DNA of 64,000 nt. It comes from an uncultured Verrucomicrobiae bacterium (GTDB lineage: Bacteria; Verrucomicrobiota; Verrucomicrobiia; Limisphaerales; UBA11358). The notes under the pieces are model-generated. The model saw only the letters and a program-made list of their open reading frames with translations. It was not told where the DNA came from and searched no databases. Positions 10,514 to 28,759 of this stretch are shown piece by piece (the first letter of the stretch is position 1; each line of letters begins with the position of its first letter). A program made the translations under genes and the position numbers. Where the stretch lies: NCBI GenBank assembly GCA_963738245.1, contig CAVTWB010000012.1, forward strand, positions 295,921 through 359,920, written 5' to 3'.

Positions 10514-10542
10514 TCGTCATTTACGGTCTGCGACATCCGATT

Positions 10543-10580
10543 TACGAGCCTGCGGATTTTTCCCGGGCTCGTATTTTTTT
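10543..10580 (+). terminator. rho-independent terminator after korB
   Basis: TACGAGCC / GGCTCGTA 8-bp stem with a 15-nt loop, followed by T7. Confidence 0.55.
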
Positions 10581-10618
10581 ATGGCGCGTCCATCGTAAAT
10601 CATCAATCGTCAATCCCG

Positions 10619-11140
10619 ATGGCCCACATCCACGAAAAAATTGATTTCACCGTCGCGATCTTTGTCGTTCACGACGGGAAGATTCTGCTCATCCACCATC
10701 GCAAGCTCGGCAAGTGGCTGCCGCTCGGCGGGCACATCGAGCTGGACGAAGATCCGGAGCAGGCGGCGCTCCGCGAGGCGAAGGAGGAGAGCGGCCTCGA
10801 CGTGGAACTGCTCGGCGAACGCCCGCCCACGACCTCGCCCGGCACCCGCGCGCTCATCGCGCCGCGATTTCTCGACATCCATCGCATCAGCGACACGCAC
10901 GAGCACATCGGCATGATTTATTGGGCGCGGCCCAAACGTGGCGGCGGCGCCCCCGCCGCCGAACTTCAGCTTGCCGCCGAGGAGCATCACGACATCCGCT
11001 GGTGCAGCCGCGACGATCTGGACAAACTGTCGCCGCCGATGAGCGACGCGGTGAAATGGTATTGCCGACAGGCCATTGAGGAGATTTCCCGCCATGAACG
11101 CGTAAATCCCGCGCCGTCTGCTACACCATCGAGGGGCTGA
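10619..11140 (+). CDS. NUDIX hydrolase
   Basis: Nudix box GGHIELDEDPEQAALREAKEESGL. Confidence 0.85.
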   Translation: MAHIHEKIDFTVAIFVVHDGKILLIHHRKLGKWLPLGGHIELDEDPEQAALREAKEESGLDVELLGERPPTTSPGTRALIAPRFLDIHRISDTHEHIGMIYWARPKRGGGAPAAELQLAAEEHHDIRWCSRDDLDKLSPPMSDAVKWYCRQAIEEISRHERVNPAPSATPSRG

Positions 11141-12249
11141 ACTCCTTCGCGACCGTCATCTTTTTCAACTACCTTTACTTCCTGTTCCGCGACCGGTTCG
11201 GGTTCAACGACAAGGAAAACCTCGCGCTCGCCTCGCTCATCGGCCTGATTTACATGTTCGCCTCGTGGCAGGCCGGGCGGATCGCGCAACGCTGCGGCCA
11301 TTTCACCGCGCTGAAAACCGGGTTTGGCATCATGATCGCCGGGCTGGTCGTCGGCTCGCAGCTTCACTCGATGGCCGGCGAAATTGCCGCCGCGTGCGTC
11401 GTGAACATCGGCATGTGTTTCATCTGGCCGGTGCTCGAGGCGCTCGTGAGCGAGGGCGCGAACGCCGCGCGCGCCGTGGGCATCTACAACATCACCTGGG
11501 CCGCCGCCAATGCCTCCGCCTATTTCATCGGCGGCACGCTCATCGTGACGTTCGGCTACCAGAGCATGTTTTATCTGCCCCTCGCCTTTATCGTGATTCA
11601 ACTGGCGCTGGTGTTCTGGCTAGAAAAAATCCACGGTGCCGCCGTCGGCGAACCCGGTGAGCTGTTGCCGCACGACGCCAACCGCCCGTCGCCGGCGCGC
11701 GCCAAAAATTTCCAGCGCATGGCGTGGCTGGCGAATCCGTTCGCCTACATCGCCATCAACACGCTGCTCGCCGTCATTCCCGGCATCGCCGCGAAGTTTC
11801 AGATGTCGCCCATGCTGGCGGGATTTGTCTGCTCGCTCTGGTGCTTCGTGCGGCTCGGCACGTTCGTGCTGCTGTGGCGCTGGCCCGGCTGGCACTACCG
11901 GTTCCGCTGGCTGGTGACGGCGTTTGCGCTGCTCATCCTCTCCTTCGCGGCCATTCTCGTCGCGCCCAATCTGGCCGTGCTGGTCGCGGCGCAAATCTTC
12001 TTCGGCGCGGCCATCGGGCTGATTTATTATTCGTCGCTGTTCTACTCGATGGACGCGAGCGACACCAAGAGCGAGCACGGCGGCATCCACGAGGCGGCCA
12101 TCGGCGCGGGAAATTTCGTCGGCCCGGCGGTGGGCGCGGCGGCGTTGCAGTTCGCGGCCCAAAGTCCCAACGCCGGGGCCTATGCCGTGAGCGGCCTGCT
12201 GCTGTGCGGCCTCGGCGGACTCGTGATGATCCGGCGGCTGGCGCGGTAG
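11094..12249 (+). CDS. MFS transporter; 5' end appears frame-broken (uninterrupted ORF only from 11254)
   Basis: Track ORF 11254..12249 is multi-TM. The same frame is open back to 11098 and encodes a first TM helix (YTIEGLNSFATVIFFNYLYFLF) with no ATG/GTG/TTG. ATG AAC GCG at 11094 would join it if T11103 were absent. Confidence 0.7.
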
Positions 12250-12611: not shown

Positions 12612-13028
12612 TCACCACTCCGTATCCAGCTTGATGACGCAATGGCCGAGGTCGAGCCGCGGGCTGCCCGGCTGCGGTTGCACGGCGGGCGACAATTTGT
12701 AGCACCGGCCGTAGCCGACGATGACCGCGCCCGCCTTCTTCAGCAGCGCCATGTGCTTGGACACGCTCGCCGCCGGACAGCGCACGCGCAGGGACAGCTC
12801 GCTCACCGGCAGGGGCTCGCCTTTGGCCAGCTCGCGCAGGATGCGCCAGCGCGCGGGCACATTCAGCAGCCGCGCCAGGTGCTTGAGCTTGATCAATTCC
12901 GTCGTCGTCGCCGTTCCCGCCGCCTCGCCCGCCGGACTGGCCGGGTCCGCCGATAATTCAGAGGTATTTGCCGTCGGTTCAGACGTATTCATGCCCGACG
13001 TTCTGACACCGCCACCCCGCCGCGTCAA
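12612..13028 (-). CDS. ArsR-family winged-helix transcriptional regulator
   Basis: HLARLLNVPARWRILRELAKGEPLPVSELSLRVRCPAASVSKHMALLKKAGAV. The start may instead be the internal MNTSEP. Confidence 0.75.
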   Translation of the reverse strand: MTRRGGGVRTSGMNTSEPTANTSELSADPASPAGEAAGTATTTELIKLKHLARLLNVPARWRILRELAKGEPLPVSELSLRVRCPAASVSKHMALLKKAGAVIVGYGRCYKLSPAVQPQPGSPRLDLGHCVIKLDTEW

Positions 13029-13059
13029 GCCATTTAACCCAAAAAATAGTCTGTCGGAA

Positions 13060-13248
13060 GAAGAAAAGCATGTATCAGACGAAAAATATAATGTTGCAGA
13101 AGAATGAAATCGTATTTGGCGAGAATAATAGCCTATTACAAGAGAAATAACTCATATCCTGAAAGAATAATCAGCAATTGTTTAAGATAAAAATGGTGTC
13201 TGAAAGGAATAAACAGGCATTAAATAGGAATAATCACGTCAAAAATAT
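13060..13248. repeat. nine strictly 21-bp-phased units, each starting GAATAAT-like and followed by 14 variable nt
   Basis: Unit starts at 13060 gaagaaa, 13081 gaaaaat, 13102 gaatgaa, 13123 gaataat, 13144 gaaataa, 13165 gaataat, 13186 gataaaa, 13207 gaataaa, 13228 gaataat. No indels. AT-rich. Confidence 0.7.
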
Positions 13249-13454
13249 TCCAACTCTATGCCAAGCCATCCATCCAGGGCACAAATTTGCACGTTAATTC
13301 CTACAAAATTGCCGTCAGAATGCAAAAAGTTGCTGCCGGAACACAAATCATTGTCCGCGTAATACAAAAGTCTGGAGTAATTCTTTGATAAATAATTGGA
13401 AAAGGCTGATAGGGCGGGCAGTCCTCTGCTCTCTGCAACGTGGGCTGTCGAAAA

Positions 13455-13548
13455 GCGGCAGAAGGCTGCCGCACTCCAAGACGCTCCGCGCAATCCGGTG
13501 GCGACCGACCATCGCCTCGCGTCTTGGAGTGCTACAGCTCCTTGTAGC
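13455..13548. repeat. three adjacent hairpins upstream of thrS (REP-like element or leader structure)
   Basis: GCGGCAG-aagg-CTGCCGC (13455-13472). A perfect 14-bp stem GCACTCCAAGACGC / GCGTCTTGGAGTGC (13471-13484 / 13519-13532). GCTACA-gctcct-TGTAGC (13531-13548). Confidence 0.6.
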
Positions 13549-13629
13549 TTTGCCGGCGGAGCGGCGCGCGTGGTCGTGGTGGCAGGTTTTCACTTACTTT
13601 CCCGGCGCCTTTGTGGTTACATTTCCCTC

Positions 13630-15744
13630 ATGTCTGCTGAACAAGAGAATCAACCGCCGCCCGCGCCGCCCAACCCGGAGCGCAAAACTCTCGACGACCG
13701 CGCGAAGATGACCGAATTGGAACGCATCCGGCATTCCGCTGCGCACGTCATGGCTACCGCCATCCTGCGGCTTTGGCCCGAGGCGCAATTCGCCGCCGGG
13801 CCGCCGGTCGAGAATGGATTTTACTACGACGTGGATTTGCCGCACCGCATCTCGCCGGAGGATTTCGCAGCCATCGAGGCCGAGATGAAAAAGGAAATCA
13901 AGGCGAACAACGTCTTCGAGAAAATCGTCGTCACGCGCGAGCAGGCGCTGAAGGATTCCGAGAGCGGACGGCTCGGCGGCCTGACCGAGCGTCCGGGCAA
14001 TCCGAGCAAGTTCAAGATCGGCAACCTCGAAGCCATTCCCGAGGGCGAGCAGATCACGTATTTCAAGAACGGCGATTTCGTTGACCTGTGCGCCGGGCCG
14101 CACGTGATGCGCACCGGCAACATCGGCGCGTTCAAGCTCACCAGCGTGGCCAGCGCGTATTACAAGGGCGACGAGCGCAACCCGCAGCTCCAGCGCATCT
14201 ACGGCACGGCGTTCAAGAACAAGACCGCGCTCGACGAGTATTTCAAGATGATCGAGGAGGCCAAGCGCCGCGACCATCGCAAGATCGGCGCGGAGATGGG
14301 GCTGTTCGCGATTGACACGGAATACGTCGGGCCGGGCCTGCCGCTGTGGCTGCCAAAGGGCACGGCCATCGTCGAGGAACTGGAGAAATTGGCGAAGGAA
14401 ACGGAATTCGCCGCCGGTTATGTGCGCGTGAAAACGCCGCACATCGCGCGGGAGAAAATGTATTTAACTTCCGGTCATTTGCCGGTGCTTTATGCGGAAT
14501 CAATGTTTCCGCCGATGCGTCTAAATATTGAAGGTGGGCAACAGGCAGCCCTTACCGAGTTGAAATCCACTCTTGGCGCGGAAGACAAGAAATTCATAGA
14601 AGGGTTTGAGGAACTGCATCCAGAATTTGCAAAAGGCGCGCAGACAACTATTGAATTCCGAGATCGCCTTACTAGCTATTTAAAAAATCTGTCTCCAGAA
14701 GATCGAAAAGGATTCGAGGAGTCTGCACTCAACAAGTGGACAATTGATCTCACGCTGGCCCGTTTCGGTGAAGAGCGTTACTACCTCAAGGCCATGAACT
14801 GCCCGCATCATCACCGCATTTTTGCGGCGGAACCGCGCAGTTACCGCGATCTGCCGTTGCGGCTGGCCGAATACGGCACCTGCTACCGCTACGAGCAGTC
14901 GGGCGAATTGTTCGGCCTCATGCGCGTCCGCTCGCTCAACATGAACGACGCGCACATCTATTGCACGCCGGAGCAGTTCGCCGCCGAGTTCAACGCCGTC
15001 AACGAAATGTATCTGAAGTATTTCAAGATTTTCGGCATCGAGAAATACGTCATGCGCTTCAGCACGCACGACCCGTCGCGCCTGACCGGCGACAACGCCA
15101 AGTTCGTCAACGAACCGGAATTGTGGAAGCAGACGGAGGATATGGTCCGCAAGGTTTTGATTGATTCGAAGATTCCCTACGTGGAGGTGCCGAACGAGGC
15201 GGCGTTTTACGGGCCGAAGATTGACGTGCAGGTCTGGAGCGTCATCGGCCGCGAATTCACGCTGGCGACTAACCAGGTGGACTTCGCCGTGCCGCGGAAA
15301 TTCGGCCTGGTCTATCGCGACAAGGACAACACGGACAAGACGCCGCTGTGCATCCATCGCGCGCCGCTGGGCACGCACGAGCGGTTCATCGGCTTCCTCA
15401 TCGAGCATTACGCCGGCAATTTCCCGCTCTGGCTCGCGCCGGAACAGGTGCGCGTGATGACCATCGGCGAGGAGGAGCCACTGGTGAATTACGCCAAGGC
15501 CATCGTGAGCGAGCTTCGCGCCAGTTTCGTCCGCTGCGAATCGGATTTCTCGTCGAACAAAATCAACGGCAAGATTCAGGAGGCGGAGCAGGCGAAAGTC
15601 CACACGATGCTCGTCATCGGCGGCCGCGACATGGACGCCGGAAATGTTTCCGTCCGTCTGCACGGCAAGGGCAACATCGGCGCGAAGCCGAAGGGCGAAG
15701 TCGTGGCTGAAATCCTGCAGGCAATCAAAGACCGGCGGGCATGA
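13630..15744 (+). CDS. thrS: threonine--tRNA ligase, with an atypical insertion of about 87 codons in the catalytic core
   Basis: Start trimmed to MSAEQEN. Editing/second-additional-domain motif ERIRHSAAHVMATA. Also RDHRKIG, YYLKAMNCPHHHRIF, SYRDLPLRLAEYGTCYRYEQSGELFGLMRVRSLNMNDAHIY, and the anticodon-binding C-terminus. Confidence 0.9.
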   Translation: MSAEQENQPPPAPPNPERKTLDDRAKMTELERIRHSAAHVMATAILRLWPEAQFAAGPPVENGFYYDVDLPHRISPEDFAAIEAEMKKEIKANNVFEKIVVTREQALKDSESGRLGGLTERPGNPSKFKIGNLEAIPEGEQITYFKNGDFVDLCAGPHVMRTGNIGAFKLTSVASAYYKGDERNPQLQRIYGTAFKNKTALDEYFKMIEEAKRRDHRKIGAEMGLFAIDTEYVGPGLPLWLPKGTAIVEELEKLAKETEFAAGYVRVKTPHIAREKMYLTSGHLPVLYAESMFPPMRLNIEGGQQAALTELKSTLGAEDKKFIEGFEELHPEFAKGAQTTIEFRDRLTSYLKNLSPEDRKGFEESALNKWTIDLTLARFGEERYYLKAMNCPHHHRIFAAEPRSYRDLPLRLAEYGTCYRYEQSGELFGLMRVRSLNMNDAHIYCTPEQFAAEFNAVNEMYLKYFKIFGIEKYVMRFSTHDPSRLTGDNAKFVNEPELWKQTEDMVRKVLIDSKIPYVEVPNEAAFYGPKIDVQVWSVIGREFTLATNQVDFAVPRKFGLVYRDKDNTDKTPLCIHRAPLGTHERFIGFLIEHYAGNFPLWLAPEQVRVMTIGEEEPLVNYAKAIVSELRASFVRCESDFSSNKINGKIQEAEQAKVHTMLVIGGRDMDAGNVSVRLHGKGNIGAKPKGEVVAEILQAIKDRRA

Positions 15745-16247
15745 TTCACGGCTACTGGTCAGTCTTTGCGGAATTGATTCAGACGCCGTTCGAGCACGCC
15801 GCGCTGATCTGGGGCATCGTGCCGCTTTACTTCGGGCTGCTGCTCAATGAGCTGACGGCCGACAAGGCGAGCTTCCGCACGGCGCTCCAGAGCGGGTTTA
15901 GTTTTCTCTGGGCCGGCGCGCAGTGGCTGTGGCCGTATTTCAAGCCGCATGGCTTCGGCGTGCCGCAGGTTGAATTCAACGCGATGCTGCCGATCAATCT
16001 GCTCGTGACCTTTCTGGTGATCGCGCTCGGCTTCGTCGCGCTCGTCAGTGGCGTCCGCAAGAAATTTCCAAAGCATCTGCGCTTCATCGGCCACACGCGG
16101 TTCGCGAATTATTTCATGATTGCCATCTTCCCGATCCAGTCCCATTACCTGCCGTGGACTTGGGAACGGTTGGCGGCCATTGTTTTGTTCGCGGTTCCCA
16201 TCTGGCTGGCGCTGCACTTCGGGCTGATGCCGCTTCGGAACCGGTAG
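15741..16247 (+). CDS. hypothetical integral membrane protein
   Basis: 168 aa with about 4 hydrophobic helices. Its ATG overlaps the thrS stop (ATGA). Confidence 0.5.
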   Translation: MIHGYWSVFAELIQTPFEHAALIWGIVPLYFGLLLNELTADKASFRTALQSGFSFLWAGAQWLWPYFKPHGFGVPQVEFNAMLPINLLVTFLVIALGFVALVSGVRKKFPKHLRFIGHTRFANYFMIAIFPIQSHYLPWTWERLAAIVLFAVPIWLALHFGLMPLRNR

Positions 16248-16316: not shown

Positions 16317-16631
16317 ATGAAAAAAATAATTCTGTTAATCATCGTTCTGGCGGCGGGAATCACCATCGGCATTTATTTCCAAAGGCAGCCCAAAGCCGAA
16401 AAAATTGAGACGCAGGTGCAGACGGACGCCACGCAAGCCAGCGCCGACGTCAAGGAAGGCGCGCAAAAGGTTGAGACGGTCGCGACGAATGTGGCGGAGC
16501 ACGTCGAAGCGGGCGCACAAAAGGCCGGCGAGGTGGCGACCAATGTCGTTGGTGACGTGAAGGCCGACGCGCAGAAAATTGATCAGGCAGCGACCAATGC
16601 TGCCGGCGAAATCAAGCAGAAGATGCCGTGA
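16317..16631 (+). CDS. small membrane-anchored protein with amphipathic repeats
   Basis: MKKIILLIIVLAAGITIGIYF anchor, then repeats of the type ATNV..V.AGAQK. Confidence 0.5.
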   Translation: MKKIILLIIVLAAGITIGIYFQRQPKAEKIETQVQTDATQASADVKEGAQKVETVATNVAEHVEAGAQKAGEVATNVVGDVKADAQKIDQAATNAAGEIKQKMP

Positions 16632-17239
16632 CCTGGAACGAACTGTTTTTTGATTTTGTCACGCTGTGGGTCACGGTGGATCCCATCGGCACGGTGCCGT
16701 TGTATTTGTCGGTGACGAAAGATCTGCCGGCGCAGGATCGCAAGCGGGCGGCGATGCGGGCGACGTTGATTGCCTTCCTGATTCTCGCAGGCTTTCTCTA
16801 TCTCGGCCAGTATCTGCTGGAGGCGATGCACGTCGAGATGCTTTCATTTCAGATTGCGGGCGGCATCGTGTTGTTCCTCTTTGCCATTTCCATGATTTTC
16901 GACAAGTCGTCGGCCACGCAGGCGCCGGTGGACAAAGGCCACGACGTGGCGGTGTTCCCGCTGGCCATGCCGTCCATCGCGACGCCGGGAGCGTTGTTGT
17001 CGGTCGTGGTGCTGACGGACAACAACACGCACAGTTTTTTTCAGGAGACACTCACGTGCGCGGTCATGGCGCTCGTGCTGGGCGTGACCCTGGTCATGAT
17101 GCTGCTCGGTGACTGGTTCATCCGCCTCATCGGGCGTTCAGGCGCGAATGTCTTGTCACGCGTGATGGGCATGATTCTGGCCGCAGTGGCCGTGGAGATG
17201 GTTTACAGCGCCGTCAAGGGACAACTGGGACCGGGCTGA
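16628..17239 (+). CDS. MarC-family (UPF0056) integral membrane protein
   Basis: FVTLWVTVDPIGTVPLYLSVT, typical of the MarC family. 6 predicted TM helices. GTG start overlaps the upstream stop. Confidence 0.8.
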   Translation: MTWNELFFDFVTLWVTVDPIGTVPLYLSVTKDLPAQDRKRAAMRATLIAFLILAGFLYLGQYLLEAMHVEMLSFQIAGGIVLFLFAISMIFDKSSATQAPVDKGHDVAVFPLAMPSIATPGALLSVVVLTDNNTHSFFQETLTCAVMALVLGVTLVMMLLGDWFIRLIGRSGANVLSRVMGMILAAVAVEMVYSAVKGQLGPG

Positions 17240-20376: not shown

Positions 20377-21075
20377 TCAGTCTGATGGATTGTTTTCGAA
20401 CTTCTGCTTAAACACATCAATCCATTTTTCTTCATTCCTATAAACTGTGGAGGGATTGATTTCGATTGTAGCAATGTCGCGTAATTTCTCTTTAATTTTT
20501 TCAAACCGAGCACTCGGCATTGTCTGACTGATTGTAATTTTTGTGATTATCGTCTCAATGTTATCAATCTTTATCTCATGGTGATTTTTATCTCCCTCCC
20601 AAATGACTCGGAATTCCTTTTCAAATCTATAAGGCCATCGTTTTATAAATGGAAGCATTTCAACGCAGTCATCTATTGTTCCATCATTAATTTCTTCAAA
20701 TCTCTTATACACAACTGAACCGAATCTCAAATTATCACCATCGTTTTTGCGTGAAAATAACAATTTTATTAGTTCGGTTTTGTCGAATTCAATGCAGCAT
20801 CCAGATATTCCATTTGCAAAAGCCTTCCAGTGATGAATTGTTTCGTGTTCCTTAAGAAAACATAGTGCTAAAAGACTTTTTGCAGGTTCAGATTGGCTGC
20901 AACTACTTATCTTTCTTTTTCGATAAATCTCCAAAAGTTCTGTATCGTTTTCATCATCCCAAAATTTTGGATCTGAAAAAACAAGACTCTTTTTTTTCAA
21001 CATGCGCAACAATACTGGAAGCGTTGTAAATCTGTTTAATTTTGTGAAAGCGGTTTCGGTTGACATATAGCGCAA
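20377..21075 (-). CDS. DUF2971-like protein
   Basis: N-terminal LNRFTTLPVLLRMLKKKSLVFSDPKFWDDENDTE and central LCFLKEHETIHHWKAFANGISGCCIEF resemble DUF2971 signature blocks (from memory, no HMM run). Confidence 0.55.
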   Translation of the reverse strand: MRYMSTETAFTKLNRFTTLPVLLRMLKKKSLVFSDPKFWDDENDTELLEIYRKRKISSCSQSEPAKSLLALCFLKEHETIHHWKAFANGISGCCIEFDKTELIKLLFSRKNDGDNLRFGSVVYKRFEEINDGTIDDCVEMLPFIKRWPYRFEKEFRVIWEGDKNHHEIKIDNIETIITKITISQTMPSARFEKIKEKLRDIATIEINPSTVYRNEEKWIDVFKQKFENNPSD

Positions 21076-21078
21076 ATG

Positions 21079-22221
21079 TTATGGAGCTGGAAACTGAACT
21101 GCCACGTTAGAAGAATTTGCTGTGATGAGGTTGTCATTACTCAACATCACTTGCATCTCCGATTTTCCGTCTGAATGAACTCGAACCAGCCAAAAATACT
21201 CTTCAGTCTTGTCTGAAACTTCTCTTTGAGCTTGCGCTACTAAAAAAAATTCGCCTTTTGTGGGTAATTGAAATAAAAACTTTCCATCTGCATCCGTTTT
21301 AGCTAATGCGATTGGAGTTGGCAAATTGCCAAAATAAATTGGGGTTGTGGATACCAACTCTGCAACTCATCTCGTATGGTTTGCAATTCGTCTGTTACAG
21401 TTTTCAATTCGTCGTTTATGGGTTCCAATGAGCATCTAAAGGCAATTTTTGGTTTGTTAACTGGCCTTCTAAACGAGGAACTAACTCGGCTAATTTGGCT
21501 TCTAAAACCTCTTGAGAATTTGTGTAGCCATCGGATTCGTCACTGGTCTTTTGCCATTCTTGGCGCAAGCGGTCTTCTTCGCTAACTTGCTTTAAATAGT
21601 CAGGATATAATCGCTCATGTGACGAGTCCCATTTCGACTGCATTTCCAAAATCGTTTTTTTCTTACTTTCCAGCTTTTGCGCCTCCTCTTGCATCGAGGC
21701 CAATAAAGAACTATCACCATGTTCGCTATACCAAACATAGCTTCCAAAGTGGTTTCATTACACCGTAAATCTGGCCGGTTAAATCCCACCTACTTTCTTT
21801 TTATCGGACCAAATCTTGGCATATTGGATTTTCAAGTGTCCAGTCAAAAGTAGCATTATTATATTTCTCTCTGATGCGTTCTTGTTGTTGCTTTATTTCA
21901 TTTGTAGATTTGTCTTCCAAATCGGCCTCGTCTTTTTCCAAATCAGCTTTCGTCTTTTCCAAGCTATCTCTCTTATTTTCTAAATCGTTTTTTGATTTTT
22001 TTTAATCAGCCCTGTTTTTTTCAAGTAGGCCGTAGTTATTGCATTGCATGATTCAATTTGCTGTTGGTCAAAAATGGAAATTGGAACAAGATAACGCTTT
22101 AGATTTTCACCGCTTTTCGTTACAATGAAAACACTTCCGTCAATTTTTTCTTCCCTCGGGGAACAGCCAGCAAAAGCAATGAAATAAGAAAAAGACCAAT
22201 AAACAATCTTGCAAATTTCAT
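21079..22221 (-). pseudogene. decayed lipoprotein gene (signal peptide, coiled coil, carboxypeptidase-regulatory-like C-terminus) split over at least 5 frames
   Basis: MKFARLFIGLF at 22221 joins ..YFIAFAGCSPREEKIDG (lipobox) only via a frame change in a T-run. KNDLENKRDSLEKTKADLEKDEADLEDK, MASMQEEAQKLESKKK.. and TDADGKFLFQLPTKGEFFLVA follow in other frames. Confidence 0.55.
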
Positions 22222-22372
22222 ATTGATTTGCAGATTGAAACGCCAATTGCCCCAATCGTCCATCCCAAAATGAAAACCGGAAAAGAGACCGCTGCCCCTG
22301 CGGAATTCAGATTGCGCTGTCAATAAAACAGACAACCCTGTTCCAACCTTTGGACACCGGGGCCATTTCCAT

Positions 22373-22640
22373 GACCATGGAAAACATTTCGTTGACCATG
22401 GAGCTTGGAAATGGTCATCGGAAACTTTCGTTGACCATCGGAGCCGTGGAAATGGTCATGGAAATCTTTTCCTTGACCATGGAAACTTTCAATGGTCATG
22501 GAAATGTTTTCGTTGACCATGGGAACCTTTTAAATGGTCATGGAAATGGTTTCGTTGATCATGTAAACCGTTTACATGGTCATGGAAATGTTTTCCTTGG
22601 TCATGGAAACCTTTTGGATTTCTTGGTCATCGAAATGGCC
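22373..22640. repeat. 13 tandem units of about 21 bp, consensus G[AG][CT]CATGGAAA(C/T)nTTTCnnT
   Basis: Core starts at 22373, 22394, 22413, 22433, 22454, 22475, 22494, 22515, 22536, 22557, 22578, 22599, 22625. Units alternate TGACCAT and its complement ATGGTCA. Confidence 0.85.
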
Positions 22641-22908
22641 TGAAACCCTCCCCCCCCTTGCTTCAAAGCGGGATTTTGCCATCACAACACATTTTTAACC
22701 AGTAAAACGGGCGTTTGCTGACGTTTACGAAACATTTATAGAAGTAATTACGATAAGGAATTAACAGATTAACAGGCTGGATGTGGAATGGTGCAAATGT
22801 GAATGGCATAGCCTGATGCTAACGAGCAGTCATTAAGGTTCAACAACTGAACCGAGGAAAAAATAAAAATGAAATAAAGATTAAAACACGAAATCGAAAA
22901 TAAAAACT

Positions 22909-23576: not shown

Positions 23577-26500
23577 TTATTCACCATCATTGTTGCCGCC
23601 GTTTTTCTTTTCCCAACTGCGCCGCGCCTTTTCCGGCAGGCTGGTGTCCACTTTCGCGTAGTAAGTCTCCTCGCCGAACAGCTTGTTGGCGGCGTGCTCC
23701 AGTTCCAGCGACGGCGCGACGCTGAACCGCTCGTTCGTGTCCATGAAAACCGTTCCGCCGCCCGGTCGCATGAAGCACAACAGCAACGGGCATTTGCCGG
23801 GATGCGCGGCGACGAGTTCCTGAATCTTGATCATGTCGTCCGGCTGCAGATGCGCCGAGTGCAGGCGCAGATGAACCTGCTTGGTGTATTTTTTCGGCGC
23901 GTCGGTGAGCGGCAGGATTTCCTGCGGGAAAATCTTCGGCTTGTCCTCGCCGGTGCTGACTTCGCCGATGACGAGAATCGCCTTGTTCGCTTCGAGCAGC
24001 GGACGGAACTTGTCGTAGTCGTTCATCACGAGCAGTTGCACCGAGCCTTCCAAATCCTCCAGCGTCACCATCGAATACGGCTTGCCGGATTTTTTGGAGA
24101 AGCCGTGCGTGACCGCCGCGATCATGCCGCCGATGCGCGTCAAACTGCGGTTCGGCAGCTCGGCGAGCTTCGCGGTGTTCGTGAGCGAATATTTTTCCAG
24201 CAGCGGCACCAGCGGCGTCAGCGGATGGCCGGTGACGTAAAATCCGAGCAGCTCTTTTTCGTGCGCGAGCAGTTCGTGCTGCGGCCATTCCGGCAGATTG
24301 GAAATCGCCTCCGGCATCGGCGGCGCTTTTTCTTCCAGCGCGCCGAAGAGCGAGCTTTGCCCTTTTTGCTTGTCGGACAAAATGCTCGCCGCGCGCGCCA
24401 TCGTGCGCTCGATTTGTGCGAACAGCGTCGCCCGCGACTGGCCGAAACAATCGCACGCGCCGGTTTTGATCAATGCTTCCAACGGTTTTCGCGTGAGCGT
24501 GCGCCCGTCCACACGCTCGCACAAGTTCGGAAAGCGTCTTGAATTTTCCGCCTTCGTTGCGCGCCTTCAAGATGGTTTCAACGGCGGCCTCGCCCACGCC
24601 CTTGATGGCCGCGATGCCGAAACGGATGCGCTGTTGTGATAGTGGGACAGGCGTCCCGCCTGTCGTGTTGCCTTGGTATTTATCTTTGGAACTGGACAGG
24701 CGGGACGCCTGTCCCACTATGGCTGCGGGCAGGCTCGCAGTCATTCCTGCTCCGAGTCGGAAATTTTTTCCAGACAAACCGGCCTTGCTTGGATTTTCCT
24801 GAATATAGTGTCCGAATTTTTCCAGGCTGGCCTCATCGCGGACAATGTGATCGAAAGATTCGTCCTGCCAGAATTCGCCTTCGCGCCCCAGAAACTTGTT
24901 GGCCTCGTGGGCCGTAAATGATTTCCAAGCGTGCAAAATATCGGAGAGCTTGTGTTCCATCAGCGGCCGGACGATGAGGTGGACATGGTTTGGCATGATG
25001 ACGTAGCTGCCCAAAACATAGCGCTCGCCATCGAAATGGCGCAAGGCATTCTCGACCATGTCAGCCACATCGGGATTTTTCAGCCAGCACGCACCGTGAG
25101 CGTCATCCAACTGCGACTCCATCTGTTCGCGGAATTCTTCCATGACGGGTTCGGAGGCTGCACCGGCGGTGCGCACCGCCGCTTCGCGTTCCTGCTTCCA
25201 TCGGATGTAAACTTCGTTCGGCAGCGAATCAGCCAGCCGGAATGTTACGAAATAGGTTGCCCCGTCCTGCCGCCAATGCGGCAGGTGCCGGCTTTCAATG
25301 CTCGCAGGACGGGATTTGTCGAAGGGCGTGAACGGCAGTGGGACGGGCTGTAGTGGGACAGGCGTCCCGCCTGTCGAGTTCGTGTTTTGGAGTTTTCCTT
25401 TTTCAAAATCTTCTTTGGAACTGGACAGGCGGGACGCCTGTCCCACTACCGATGCGGGCGCAAAAAACACGCCGCTCTCGTTCACGTCCGGGCCGAGCAC
25501 CTCGATGTCGAACTCGCGCGCCTCGGCGATGTATTCGGCGAGCTTGTCCGTGTTCGCCATGTCGTTCGTCATCATGGCGCAGAAAAATTCCACCGGATAA
25601 TTCGCCTTCAGATACGCGGTCTGATACGCGACGATGGCATACGCGGCGGCGTGCGATTTGTTGAAACCGTAGCCGGCGAATTTTTCCAGCAAGTCGAAAA
25701 TTTGGTTTGCCTTCGTCTTCGGAATATTGTTTTTCTCGTGGCAGCCCTTGACGAAATCCTCGCGCTGCTTGGCCATTTCCTCGACCTTTTTCTTGCCCAT
25801 CGCGCGCCGCAGCAAATCCGCCTTGCCGAGCGAGTAGCCGGCGAGCAACTGCGTCGCCTGCATCACCTGCTCCTGATAAATCAGGATGCCGTAGGTCTCC
25901 TTGGAAATGGATTCGAGCAGCGGATGCTCGTATTTGATCTCGATCTCGCCGTGGCGGCGCTTGATGAAATCAGGAATCAGATCCATCGGGCCGGGCCGAT
26001 ACAGCGCGACGAGCGCCGTGATGTGCTCGACGGAACTGATCTGGAATTTTTTGCACAGGTCGCGCATCCCGCCGGATTCCAACTGGAACACGCCGAGCGT
26101 TTCCGCGCGGTTCAGCAGGTCGTAGGTTTTTTTGTCGTCGAGCGGCAACTGGTCAATGTTGATCTGCACGCCGTGCGTTTGCTTGACCATCTCGCAGGTG
26201 TTGCGGATGACGGTCAACGTTTTCAGCCCGAGAAAATCCATCTTCAGCAGGCCGAGGTCGCCGACGGGATTCATCGCGTATTGCGTGACGATGCCGCCAT
26301 GTTCGTCCAGCTTGAGCGGCAGCAAATTCACCAGCGGCTGGTCGCCGATGACCACGCCGGCCGCATGAACACTGGCATTGCGCGTGAGGTCTTCGAGGAT
26401 GAGCGCGGTGTCAATCAGCTCGCGCGTGACTTCTTCGGTCTCGTAAGCCTCCTTGAATTCCGGCGACTGCTTGAGCGCCTTCGTCAAATCCATTTTCAGA

Positions 26501-28759
26501 TCGAACGGAATCATTTTCGCCAGCCGGTCGCAGTCGCCATACGGCAAACCCATCACGCGGCCGACATCGCGCACGACGGATTTTCGCGCCCATCGTGCCG
26601 AACGTGATGATCTGCGCGACAGAATCATTGCCATATTTTTTGCGGACATATTCGATGACGTCAGCGCGGCGGTCGTCGGCGAAATCAATATCAATATCGG
26701 GCGGATTAACGCGCTCGGGATTGAGAAATCGCTCGAACAGCAGGCCGTAGCGGATCGGATCCACGTTCGCGATTTCGAGCAGGTAGGTGACAATCGAACC
26801 GGCGGCGCTGCCGCGCGCCACGCAGGCAATGCCCTGGCTGCGGCCATAGCGGATGAAATCGCCGACGATGAGAAAGTAGGAAATGAAACCCGTCTTCTCG
26901 ATGACCGTGAGTTCGAGCTGCAAGCGGTCAATGACCGTTTTGACGGCAGCGGCAACGGCGGGATCGTTGGTTAGTGGCACAGGCGTCTCGCCTGTGTGTT
27001 TCTGTTTTTCATCGCACAGGCAGGACGTCTGTGCCACTAAACCGCCGCCGACACGGTATGCCCCTTCGCCCAAACTTGCTTTCTTGGGATTATCTTGAAT
27101 ATACCGGCCAAACTTTTCCAACTGTTGCTCGTTTCTGACGATGTGGTCGAAGGATTCCGGCTGCCAAAATTCTCCCTCACGATTCAGCAGCTTGTTGGCT
27201 TCTTTCGCAGTGAACGATTTCCACGACTGGAGAATGTCAGATAATGTGTGTCCCATCGCTGGCCGCACCAAAACATGGACGTGATTGGGCATGATGACGT
27301 AGCTGCCCAACAAATAGCGTTCACCATCAAAGTGACGCAGCGCAGCCTCCACCATTTTGGAGACGCCAGAATCGCGCAGCCAGCACTCGCCGATGCCTTG
27401 ATCCAAGTGTCGTTCCAACTTTTTCTCGCATTCTTCGGCAATTTTCCCGGCCAGCTCCTGTTTCTCCGCGTCGGAAAGGTTGGCGGCCTGCTTCGCTTCG
27501 CGCAAAGCGGCGTCACGTTCATCACGCCATTGTTTGAAGACTTCCTGCGGCAGTGAATCATCCAGACGGAACGTTACAAAATATGTTGCGCCTTCCTGCT
27601 GCCAATGTGGCAGGGAACGTGAATGAATGCTTGCCGGACGGGTTTGGTCAAACGCGGTGAACGGCATTAGTGGCACAGGCGTCTCGCCCGTGTGTTTCTG
27701 TTTTTCGTCACACAGGCGGGACGCCTGTGCCACTACATTATACGTCGGCAGCCGCTTCGGATCATCAATGCCCGTGACGACAAATTCTTTTCCTTCCGCC
27801 TTCGCGTGAATCGTGTAGCGCGTGAACAGTCCTTCCGCCAGCCATTGCCGCAAAAAACCTTCGCGCGTGAAATGTTCCGGCGGATGAAACACCGGATAAT
27901 GCAGCTGGCCGAACTTGATTTCCAAATTGCATTTCTCGGCAACCTCCATCGTGTTCTTCACCGCCTCCGGCACCTCGGCGAAACGCGCCTTCATTTCGTC
28001 TGCGCTGCGCAGATAAAACTGTTCCGGCACATAGCCCGCGCTCATGCGCTTGGGGTCGCTCAACAGGGATTGCGTGCCGATGCAGACGAGACAATCGTGC
28101 GCGTGCGAATGGCTTTTCTCGATGTAATGGACGTCATTCGTCGCGACGAGCTTCAGGCCGAATTCCTTTGGCCAATTTGAATCAACTGCTTGATTGACCT
28201 TGGCCTGTTCGGGAATGCCGTGGTTTTGGAGTTCGAGGAAAAAATTTTCCGCGCCGAGCGTCTGCTTGAAGAAATCCACCGCATCGCGCGCCTTGTCAAT
28301 TTGATCCTTCATGATCAAATCGGGAATCTCGCTGGCGAGACAACCGGACATCGCGATCAGACCTTCGCTGTGCTGCGCCAAAATTTCCTTGTCAATGCGC
28401 GGCTTGTAATAATAGCCCTCCAGGTGCGCGGCGGTCGTGAGCTTGATGAGATTTTTGTAGCCGGTCTCGTCCTTCACCAGCAGGCCGAGATGATGATACT
28501 TGTCGCCCTCGACTTTTTTGCGTTCCAGCCGCGAGCCGGGCGCGACATAAACCTCGCAGCCGATGATGGGCTTGATGCCTTTCGCGCGCGCGGCCTGATA
28601 AAACTCGATCACGCCGTGCATCGCGCCGTGGTCGGTGATGGCGAGCGCGGGAAATTTCAGCTCATGCGCCCGCTCCATCAATCTGTCCAAACGGCACGCG
28701 CCATCGAGCAACGAATACTCGGTGTGCAAATGAAGATGGACAAAGTCAGCGTGCGACAT
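23577..28759 (-). CDS. dnaE: DNA polymerase III alpha subunit, interrupted by two in-frame HUH-transposase cassettes and two 1-nt frame breaks
   Basis: PHP domain HLHLHTEYSLLDG. GFISYFLIVGDFI, ARGSAAGS, FLNPERVNPPDIDIDF, ITFGTMGAK|SVVRDVGRVMGLPYG, FNKSHAAAYA, IAAIKGVGEAAVETIL, and OB/C-terminal region. Assembled from track ORFs 26411..28759, 23587..26955 and 23577..24524. Confidence 0.9.
24642..24717. repeat. REPIN-like nested palindrome, type A (cassette 2, DnaE-distal side)
   Basis: Perfect 23-nt arms GTGGGACAGGCGTCCCGCCTGTC / GACAGGCGGGACGCCTGTCCCAC with a 30-nt loop. Each arm is itself a hairpin GACAGGCG-nnn-CGCCTGTC. Confidence 0.9.
25353..25446. repeat. REPIN-like nested palindrome, type A (cassette 2, DnaE-proximal side)
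   Basis: Same perfect 23-nt arms with a 48-nt loop. A partial extra copy AGTGGGACGGGCTG lies at 25338-25351. Confidence 0.9.
26974..27037. repeat. REPIN-like nested palindrome, type B (cassette 1, distal side)
   Basis: GTGGCACAGGCGTCTCGCCTGTG .. CACAGGCAGGACGTCTGTGCCAC. 23-bp stem with 1 mismatch and 2 G-T pairs. Loop of about 18 nt. Confidence 0.85.
27670..27733. repeat. REPIN-like nested palindrome, type B (cassette 1, proximal side)
   Basis: GTGGCACAGGCGTCTCGCCCGTGTG .. CACACAGGCGGGACGCCTGTGCCAC. Differs from the 26974 copy at 5 of 64 positions. Confidence 0.85.

Follow-up and report, generated by a model that had tools for sequence, protein, structure and literature searches.

An in-frame insert of varying length and sequence between two catalytic motifs of threonyl-tRNA synthetase in Limisphaerales-type Verrucomicrobiota, probably a cassette whose alleles are exchanged by recombination

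The DNA considered here is a 64,000-nt stretch (hereafter the window; contig CAVTWB010000012.1 of assembly GCA_963738245.1, positions 295,921 to 359,920) from an uncultured Verrucomicrobiae bacterium of the Limisphaerales lineage. It encodes a threonyl-tRNA synthetase (ThrRS; gene thrS) whose class II catalytic core is interrupted, in frame, by 87 codons of unusual composition. We consider it probable that Limisphaerales-type Verrucomicrobiota have, throughout the lineage, a hypervariable in-frame cassette in thrS, of which this patch is the local allele, and that its alleles are replaced by recombination. The features of the locus, all on the forward strand, are as follows.

13630-15744 (+): thrS coding sequence, 704 aa plus stop, with editing (tRNA_SAD), class II core and HGTP anticodon-binding domains
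14455-14517 (+): upstream conserved arm, KMYLTSGHLPVLYAESMFPPM, with the codon of the histidine equivalent to E. coli His309 at 14476-14478
14518-14778 (+): 87-codon in-frame insert of 261 nt, residues 297-383 (RLNIEGG...ARFGEER), the local allele of the putative cassette
14779-14838 (+): downstream conserved arm, YYLKAMNCPHHHRIFAAEPR, with the codon of the cysteine equivalent to zinc ligand Cys334 at 14800-14802
14455-14778 (+): maximum-likelihood segment of low GC at third codon positions (GC3), codons 276-383, GC3 0.42 inside versus 0.84 outside
14536-14616 (+): long helix 1 of the insert, residues 303-329, predicted by AlphaFold2
14695-14766 (+): long helix 2 of the insert, residues 356-379, predicted by AlphaFold2

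The open reading frame (ORF) at 13396-15744 is that of ThrRS, with the ATG at 13630 as its likely start. Its product aligned with the S. aureus structure 1nyq (E=3e-143) and matched the Pfam profiles for the class II core (PF00587, E=1.8e-40), the tRNA_SAD editing domain (E=1.5e-14) and the HGTP domain (PF03129, E=7e-12); an identical protein (P0001) is present in the public protein collection. Pfam gave no match at its N-terminus for the TGS domain, which is typical of canonical bacterial ThrRS and not essential, and the enzyme is taken to be without this domain because its alignments to 1nyq and 1qf6 begin only at chain residues 67-69. The whole clade is without TGS, having instead a short variable Pro/Gln-rich tail (13630-13700 in the window). 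The DNA 5' of thrS at 13050-13350 is very AT-rich (GC 0.29-0.40) and may act as a leader or in regulation; within 13000-16000 there was no match to an Rfam family (e.g., T-box).

Against the solved structures, the alignment of the window enzyme splits in two, breaking after ..SMFPPM and restarting at ERYYLKAMNCPHH. Between these pieces, 1nyq proceeds from residue 324 to 327 and 1qf6 from 320 to 325, so that solved enzymes have 2-5 residues there and the window enzyme has ~82-87 extra ones. The net gain over the hairpin turn of canonical enzymes, which has 6 residues, is ~81 aa. Insert-free ThrRS proteins read PPM-ELENAQ-YYLK or alike across the site, and the residues of the original hairpin persist as the conserved EL.E where the insert starts and the (G/P)ER where it ends. 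Counted along the 1qf6 alignment, the His of the upstream SGH motif is E. coli His309 and the Cys of the downstream MNCPHH motif is Cys334, i.e., the active-site histidine and a zinc ligand of the E. coli enzyme (PMC3907816). The insert is thus shown to open the tip of the β-hairpin between the catalytic-His loop and the zinc-ligand strand. An earlier reading of the letters alone (the sequence-only reading) had stated that canonical enzymes have only a few residues at this point, and had placed an insertion of about 87 codons within the class II core; the structural alignments bear out both statements. It was also correct that there is no stop, no change of frame and no obvious terminal repeat; 14300-14950 contains 0 inverted repeats and the direct repeats at the insert are short and at chance level.

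Occupancy of this site was compared at two levels. Among the 120 best protein matches, which are ThrRS from Verrucomicrobiota metagenome bins with 79-88% identity, protein length ranges from 619 to 857 aa and all length variation falls at this single site, where the inserts measure 14-251 aa. A species-level scan (one genome per species) yielded 80 loci labelled Limisphaerales, Pedosphaera or Verrucomicrobia subdivision 3, and in 78 of the 79 that could be parsed the insert is 41-105 aa long, the remaining locus having 13 aa. Outside the clade the site is usually empty: 79 of 102 parseable ThrRS representatives (50% clustering) are insert-free, 14 have a small insert and 9 have one of >40 aa, some of these nine belonging to other lineages. 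The hairpin tip is therefore a recurrent permissive insertion point, also beyond the clade, and its constant occupancy is a trait of the clade. The sequence-only reading had named, as the outcome that would count against it, a conserved lineage-wide feature of normal local composition; the orthologue comparison that it called for finds the insert to be lineage-wide indeed, with a sequence that is not conserved and, as described below, a composition that is not normal in relatives either. Separately, inserts of 43-99 residues were noted at the same tip in ThrRS of other lineages that are 34-39% identical (P0165, 720 aa; P0224, 735 aa; P0233, P0257 and P0269).

The variety of the insert is large. 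Over 197 sequences, lengths run from 13 to 252 aa, with concentrations at 50-70 and 80-90 aa, and the inserts fall into 97 BLAST classes, 60 of them singletons, whereas a well-sampled 60-aa class has 21 members; typical inserts are rich in E, K, L and Q and cannot be aligned with one another. A word search of the window insert against 5.8 billion proteins gave no match, making the allele unique at such sensitivity, and on its own it drew nothing above noise from Pfam (DUF4473, E=0.1; HAAS, E=0.15). By phmmer, it is weakly similar to other 85-90-aa alleles (E values from 2e-5 to 4e-3; P0004, E=2e-5; P0115, E=1e-4), and since this similarity is significant, if weak, we regard the window allele as a diverged member of the clade's own pool.

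At the protein level, the inserts have common properties. Where they can be aligned, their ratio of nonsynonymous to synonymous divergence (dN/dS) is 0.1-0.4, compared with 0.02-0.2 for the rest of thrS, which identifies the insert as translated protein on which purifying selection is relaxed. For L069 and L071, the closest pair, dN in the insert (0.074) is 18 times that in the rest (0.004). In the AlphaFold2 model of the window enzyme, two short helices (331-335 and 340-352) are predicted between the long ones, and flanking strands at 296-298 and 382-384; pLDDT (the model's per-residue confidence) is 71-87 over residues 300-380 for this 87-aa class. For a 60-aa class (P0021), helices 288-313 and 320-339 are predicted between strands 283-285 and 342-344, with pLDDT of 70-87. 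The predicted arm is hence, in two unrelated allele classes, an antiparallel helical hairpin or bundle whose chain runs out of the core along one strand of the β-hairpin and back along the other. Charged residues make up 38% of the inserts, and their net charge, -4 in the window and -3.8 on average, lies between -13 and 0, so that no insert is net positive. The helical and acidic character proposed from the sequence-only reading thus agrees with both the models and the charge counts.

The patch is conspicuous for its composition. Overall GC falls from ~0.62 to 0.43-0.48 at the insert, and GC3 is 0.40 in the insert versus 0.82 in the other 617 thrS codons (Fisher p = 9e-16), making this the strongest in-frame GC3 dip among credible genes of the window. 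Amino-acid composition is not the cause, because the same residues recoded with the codon usage of the rest of the gene would have an expected GC3 of 0.82. A two-change-point likelihood fit on the thrS codons placed the start of the low-GC3 segment at 14455, 21 codons upstream of the insert and inside conserved sequence. In this, the sequence-only reading is matched to the exact coordinate, and its remarks on aberrant codon usage are confirmed by the sliding GC and GC3 profiles.

From these features, the sequence-only reading suggested a recombination patch, which as an explanation would mean that low-GC foreign DNA was recently brought into the thrS of this genome. The GC3 contrast, its onset upstream of the insert and the lack of a close relative of the insert anywhere are what such an import would leave. 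However, low GC3 proved to be a property of the clade's inserts at large: over 79 species, mean GC3 is 0.54 in the insert and 0.81 in the rest of thrS, and it is >0.1 below the rest of the gene in 69 of the 79, in inserts that are unrelated to one another. G/C-ending codons are rarer inside inserts for every amino acid, while GC at codon positions 1+2 is normal (0.485 in inserts, 0.488 elsewhere in thrS), and the insert itself is a diverged member of the clade's 85-90-aa class. The AT-ending codons of the upstream flank (TAT TTA .. GGT CAT TTG .. CTT TAT .. GAA TCA) are common to L001-L004, whose inserts are other than this one and unrelated, which rules out a recent foreign patch in this genome. 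Recent import is thus largely refuted and, in our estimation, very improbable as an explanation; the part of the suggestion that stands is the uncoupling of the insert alleles from the backbone, described below. Low GC3 belongs to the cassette population and is no sign of recent foreign origin. It probably stems from weak selection on codon usage or accuracy, or from little GC-biased conversion where homologous partners are rarely met. The deficit shows a weak trend with allele spread (Spearman 0.24, p=0.035; singletons versus clusters of at least 3, p=0.14), being slightly smaller in widely shared classes and larger in longer inserts, and a gradient extends into the flanks, with GC3 of 0.69-0.75 within 40-50 codons and 0.8-0.9 farther out.

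The central observation concerns the relationship between the insert and the gene that carries it. Backbones were compared both as protein (250 aa upstream plus 300 aa downstream of the insert) and by 4-fold-site distances from a codon alignment of 87 thrS genes, in which the backbone has a one-codon indel (LPVLY versus LPYY). Pairs with 98-99% identical protein backbones mostly have inserts at random-level identity. The closest backbones to that of the window (L083, L081, L082 and L001) carry unrelated inserts of 89, 78, 228 and 64 aa, even though the nucleotide distance to the first of these backbones is just 0.031. Likewise, four loci from four separate studies (L055, L073, L076 and L080) have thrS DNA that is 95-98% identical, with backbone synonymous divergence (dS) of 0.08-0.2, and unrelated inserts of 88, 78, 83 and 76 aa; in blastn comparisons among them, homology ends after CCGCCGATG and resumes at CG(C/T)TA(C/T)TACCTC, exactly at the insert edges, with no match reported within the inserts. 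The closest backbone pair of all (L026/L031) has unrelated inserts. Conversely, homologous inserts are found on distant backbones: L073 and P0104 (40% insert identity, E=1e-15; backbones 81% identical), L026 and P0038 (58%, E=6e-31; 87%) and L055 and P0049 (E=1e-6; 78%). Homologous inserts occur in 1-5% of pairs whichever 4-fold-site distance bin between 0.1 and 0.5 is taken; the same class is found in only 2 of the 44 closest pairs, and median backbone distance is 0.43 for insert-homologous pairs and 0.41 for all pairs. Insert sequence class is thus shown to be statistically independent of the thrS backbone. A 59-nt pattern of the downstream arm (three wobble positions degenerate) retrieved 30 metagenome contigs, those parsed having mostly different inserts; an exact 45-nt search with the upstream arm in metagenomes returned nothing.

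Could such a pattern arise by descent alone, through very fast divergence of an unconstrained linker without any exchange? Inserts exceed the backbone in dN by a factor of up to 18, the backbone is under such extreme constraint that protein identity understates elapsed time, and dS of 0.3-0.7 in neighbouring genes between some seemingly close pairs leaves room for much change. Nevertheless, classes remain recognizable (40-78% identity) across the deepest splits (~80% protein identity, dS ~1), while inserts on the closest backbones (4-fold distance ~0.1) are unrelated and differ in length. Purely vertical divergence would need rates differing by orders of magnitude between sister lineages and is contradicted by the four-taxon conflicts; we hold it to be a most improbable account. 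Since fast vertical divergence alone cannot produce those conflicts, alleles must be replaced relative to the backbone.

As to how replacement might take place, the motifs abutting the insert are among the most conserved stretches of thrS at the DNA level, and this high conservation means that they could serve as homology arms between lineages. A hint, but no more than a hint, of a footprint is seen in the 20 codons upstream, where synonymous differences are 0.34 when inserts differ and 0.19 in the five same-class pairs. The thrS backbone has a dS 2-4 times lower than its neighbouring genes do when the same two genomes are compared (0.30 versus 0.62-0.69; 0.15 versus 0.58), making backbone distances an imperfect clock. 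The thrS backbone (13630-15744) has 94-95.5% nucleotide identity to L081, versus 77% for its neighbours at 10514-12249 and 16628-17239, and the thrS gene neighbourhood differs in the close relatives L081, L082 and L083. The contrast in similarity and the shifted neighbourhoods suggest unusual gene flow or strong synonymous constraint at thrS.

Several points weigh against a cassette with recombining alleles. A recombination tract was not seen directly. The two halves of thrS are concordant, discordant triplets across the insert being no commoner than within each half, so any replacement must be a short patch produced by double crossover, with both breakpoints near the insert. The low backbone dS could reflect extra gene flow or, equally, strong codon selection. 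The flank GC3 dip is present in two of the three short-insert alleles too, for which reason it is not diagnostic of a recombination footprint, and low GC3 may itself be due to weak codon or accuracy selection, reduced GC-biased conversion or post-origin amelioration. Five alleles of 13-15 aa (L066, P0083/84 and P0111/116) show that the arm can be lost and is not indispensable. The AlphaFold2 cores are, on account of shallow alignments, too poor (mean pLDDT 50 and 53) to place the arm relative to the active site, tRNA or dimer interface. Lastly, the comparison sequences are all from metagenome assemblies, in which chimeras are possible; an artefact is argued against by the four independent studies that give the same backbone with different inserts.

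Mobile DNA is a further candidate source of the inserts, as the same site is used by transposases in relatives. Five relatives' proteins among the 120 best matches have an in-frame PF01797 domain at the thrS insert site, i.e., that of the REP-associated tyrosine transposase (RAYT)/IS200-like family, where REP denotes repetitive extragenic palindromic elements (in P0064, residues 326-426, E=1e-6, 29.3 bits versus a cutoff of 23). On either side of the RAYT allele are REP-like units whose inverted arms measure 43 nt, and a single 29-aa GSAGVPPAVSGVAPETS unit occurs alone in two further proteins. The relatives' REP core has GGCGTCCCGCCTG in common with REPs that lie in dnaE of the window. Apart from the insert, L086 (one unit) and L087 (a RAYT with a unit on each side) have 92-94% identity, also in the neighbouring genes, so that the transposase is polymorphic, present or absent, within an essential gene. 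The elements concerned are as follows.

L082, 5867-6551; L087, 2346-3042; L086, 2310-2400: elements at the thrS insert site of relatives, each a complete RAYT or a single REP-like unit
Window, 23577-28759 (-): dnaE, with two in-frame RAYT/IS200-like Y1 domains at ~24639-25459 and ~26971-27746 and the HUH motif 'PNHVH'

Each dnaE RAYT is bracketed by inverted pairs of GTAG-type REP hairpins (GTAGTGGGACAGGCGTCCCGCCTGTC...). In the protein these hairpins give rise to two recurring peptides, 'VAQASRLCDEKQKHTGETPVPL' and 'VGQASRLSSSK..TGGTPVPL'; six copies of the REP core were found in the window, all within dnaE. The occurrence of REPs within dnaE and aminoacyl-tRNA synthetase (aaRS) genes has been reported (PMC3733652).

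These footprints raise the prospect that the inserts are decayed remnants of selfish in-frame elements, REP/REPIN-RAYT or akin to Rickettsia palindromic elements (RPEs), that repeatedly landed in a permissive loop. The REP-flanked RAYT at the exact site in five relatives, the single unit in two, the two in-frame RAYTs with REP pairs in dnaE and the documented REPs in replication and aaRS genes (PMC3733652) would all fit. Yet the window insert has no inverted repeats, REP motif, Pfam match or second copy (709 kb of related DNA; 5.8 billion proteins), and REP-derived alleles, being GC-rich and rich in Gly, Pro, Ala and Val, are compositionally unlike the acidic helical ones, which have protein-level constraint and a common predicted fold. 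We therefore view a derivation of the helical inserts from such elements as improbable. The parallel drawn in the sequence-only reading between thrS and dnaE, as two essential genes with foreign-looking DNA kept in frame, accordingly holds just indirectly: the dnaE inserts are REP-flanked RAYTs, the window thrS insert is not, and the thrS site of relatives can be.

Other identities for the window insert were tried and rejected. (i) It is no REP, REPIN or RPE palindrome, as 14300-14950 has 0 inverted repeats and no REP motif, and its RNA fold has z=+0.78. (ii) It is not a multicopy element: when all helical inserts were compared by tblastn with 709 kb of related DNA, matches lay inside thrS only, and the word search with the window insert found no copy in the 5.8 billion proteins. 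(iii) A RAYT is excluded by the lack of a PF01797 match, and (iv) an intein by its first residue, R (E/Q/T/K in relatives), its terminal EER followed by Y and the absence of a Hint match. (v) For the CAAD domain there was no Pfam match in an insert that is 38% charged with a net charge of -4. (vi) A diversity-generating retroelement target would have a second copy, of which there is none in the 64-kb window, and allele lengths run from 13 to 252 aa. (vii) An RNA-level element or promoter found no backing, with no Rfam match at E<=1, no sigma-70-like promoter and no excess of RNA structure.

Two side observations concern this part of the window. The dnaE frame is apparently broken at ~26500 and ~24520 (-), with ORFs 26411-28759, 23587-26955 and 23577-24524 overlapping in different frames, and the DnaE sequence runs on across both junctions (..TMGAK|SVVRDVG.. 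and ..KTLSEL|CERVDGR..); these breaks could be assembly indels, a pseudogene or programmed frameshifts. Between an RNase R-like gene and dnaE lies a low-GC island of 2.4 kb (20400-22800; GC 0.34-0.41 versus 0.57 for the window), holding ORF 20377-21075 (-) with AT-rich codon usage, that is probably foreign or mobile DNA.

A different kind of explanation is conflict: the arm would be recognized by an antagonist (a phage or toxin protein, for example, able to bind or inhibit ThrRS), and negative frequency-dependent selection would keep old allele classes and favour exchange. Ultraconserved arms around a hypervariable core are seen at loci under such selection (flagellin and pilin variable regions), the allele classes predate the splits between backbones and do not track them, 78 of 79 species keep the arm although they could seemingly do without it, and the thrS backbone is unusually similar across lineages, as with frequent exchange at the locus. 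Conversely, pairwise within-class dN/dS of 0.1-0.4 bears no sign of positive selection, ThrRS is cytoplasmic, no antagonist is known or encoded nearby, and neutral divergence in separate species with occasional transfer yields the same pattern. Conflict as the driver thus seems unlikely to us, though not negligible; its more specific form, in which a phage or competitor protein targets ThrRS via the arm and lineages escape by swapping cassettes through the conserved catalytic motifs, is a shade less likely still. Were the arm a conflict surface, an essential aaRS would possess an antigenic-variation-like locus, and the RAYT/REP elements at the site could reflect or assist its turnover.

We return to the reading that we favour, that of a hypervariable cassette with exchanged alleles. 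The arm would fold independently and project from the enzyme surface, such that almost any soluble acidic helical hairpin of ~55-105 residues would be tolerated. Selection would then keep an arm and not its sequence: retention in nearly all species despite the usual bacterial deletion bias suggests that presence, size and charge are selected. Alleles would diverge quickly and then be replaced in short patches by homologous recombination between lineages, with the two ultraconserved catalytic motifs abutting the insert serving as homology arms. The same permissive site is also taken, in relatives, by in-frame RAYT/REP mobile DNA.

Among known systems, flagellin (FliC) has conserved N- and C-terminal regions and a hypervariable centre able to host foreign domains, with alleles moved by recombination in the flanks. 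Similarly, thrS has conserved flanks and a core that varies in length and sequence, with core alleles incongruent with the flanks; flagellin, however, lies outside the cell, where immunity and phage drive its variation, whereas ThrRS is cytoplasmic and essential and its variable segment lies between catalytic motifs. Within class II synthetases, the INS editing domain of bacterial ProRS and the coiled-coil tRNA-binding arm of SerRS are sequence-conserved, have defined functions and follow host phylogeny. They too are modules added within or next to the class II core, and the arm of SerRS resembles that of thrS in being a long antiparallel helical hairpin; it is basic where it touches tRNA, whereas the thrS arm is acidic. 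The CAAD module of cyanobacterial class I synthetases (ValRS, IleRS, LeuRS, GluRS, ArgRS, MetRS and CysRS) is also a helical module of ~100 residues at an aaRS surface, dispensable for catalysis and repeatedly acquired (PMC4893482). CAAD differs in being one conserved CURT1-homologous family with two transmembrane helices and a membrane-anchoring role, found on monomeric class I enzymes only (PMC4893482), while the thrS arm is acidic and soluble, lacks sequence conservation and belongs to a class II core that is dimeric. Rickettsia RPEs and the GTAG/CGTC REPs in dnaE, recB and aaRS genes are comparable as in-frame extra peptides at permissive sites of essential genes (PMC3733652); those elements are multicopy and palindromic, as opposed to the single-copy, non-palindromic window insert of a protein family under purifying selection. 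The flagellin core, CAAD and in-frame REP/RPE elements are the closest analogues, and none combines all features of the thrS arm.

Synthetases are treated as slowly evolving, vertically inherited markers, with their insertions serving as stable signatures of clades. Here, one thrS site between catalytic motifs is cassette-like: its sequence is never the same, is uncoupled from the gene and admits a whole transposase domain, and both thrS phylogenies and GC-based detectors of foreign DNA will be misled at this locus. If confirmed, the clade would provide a natural map of a permissive class II insertion point, useful for the engineering of ThrRS fusions, and ultraconserved coding motifs may act as portable homology arms between species. 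It would also raise the testable question of why an acidic helical arm is maintained by selection when its sequence is free to vary.

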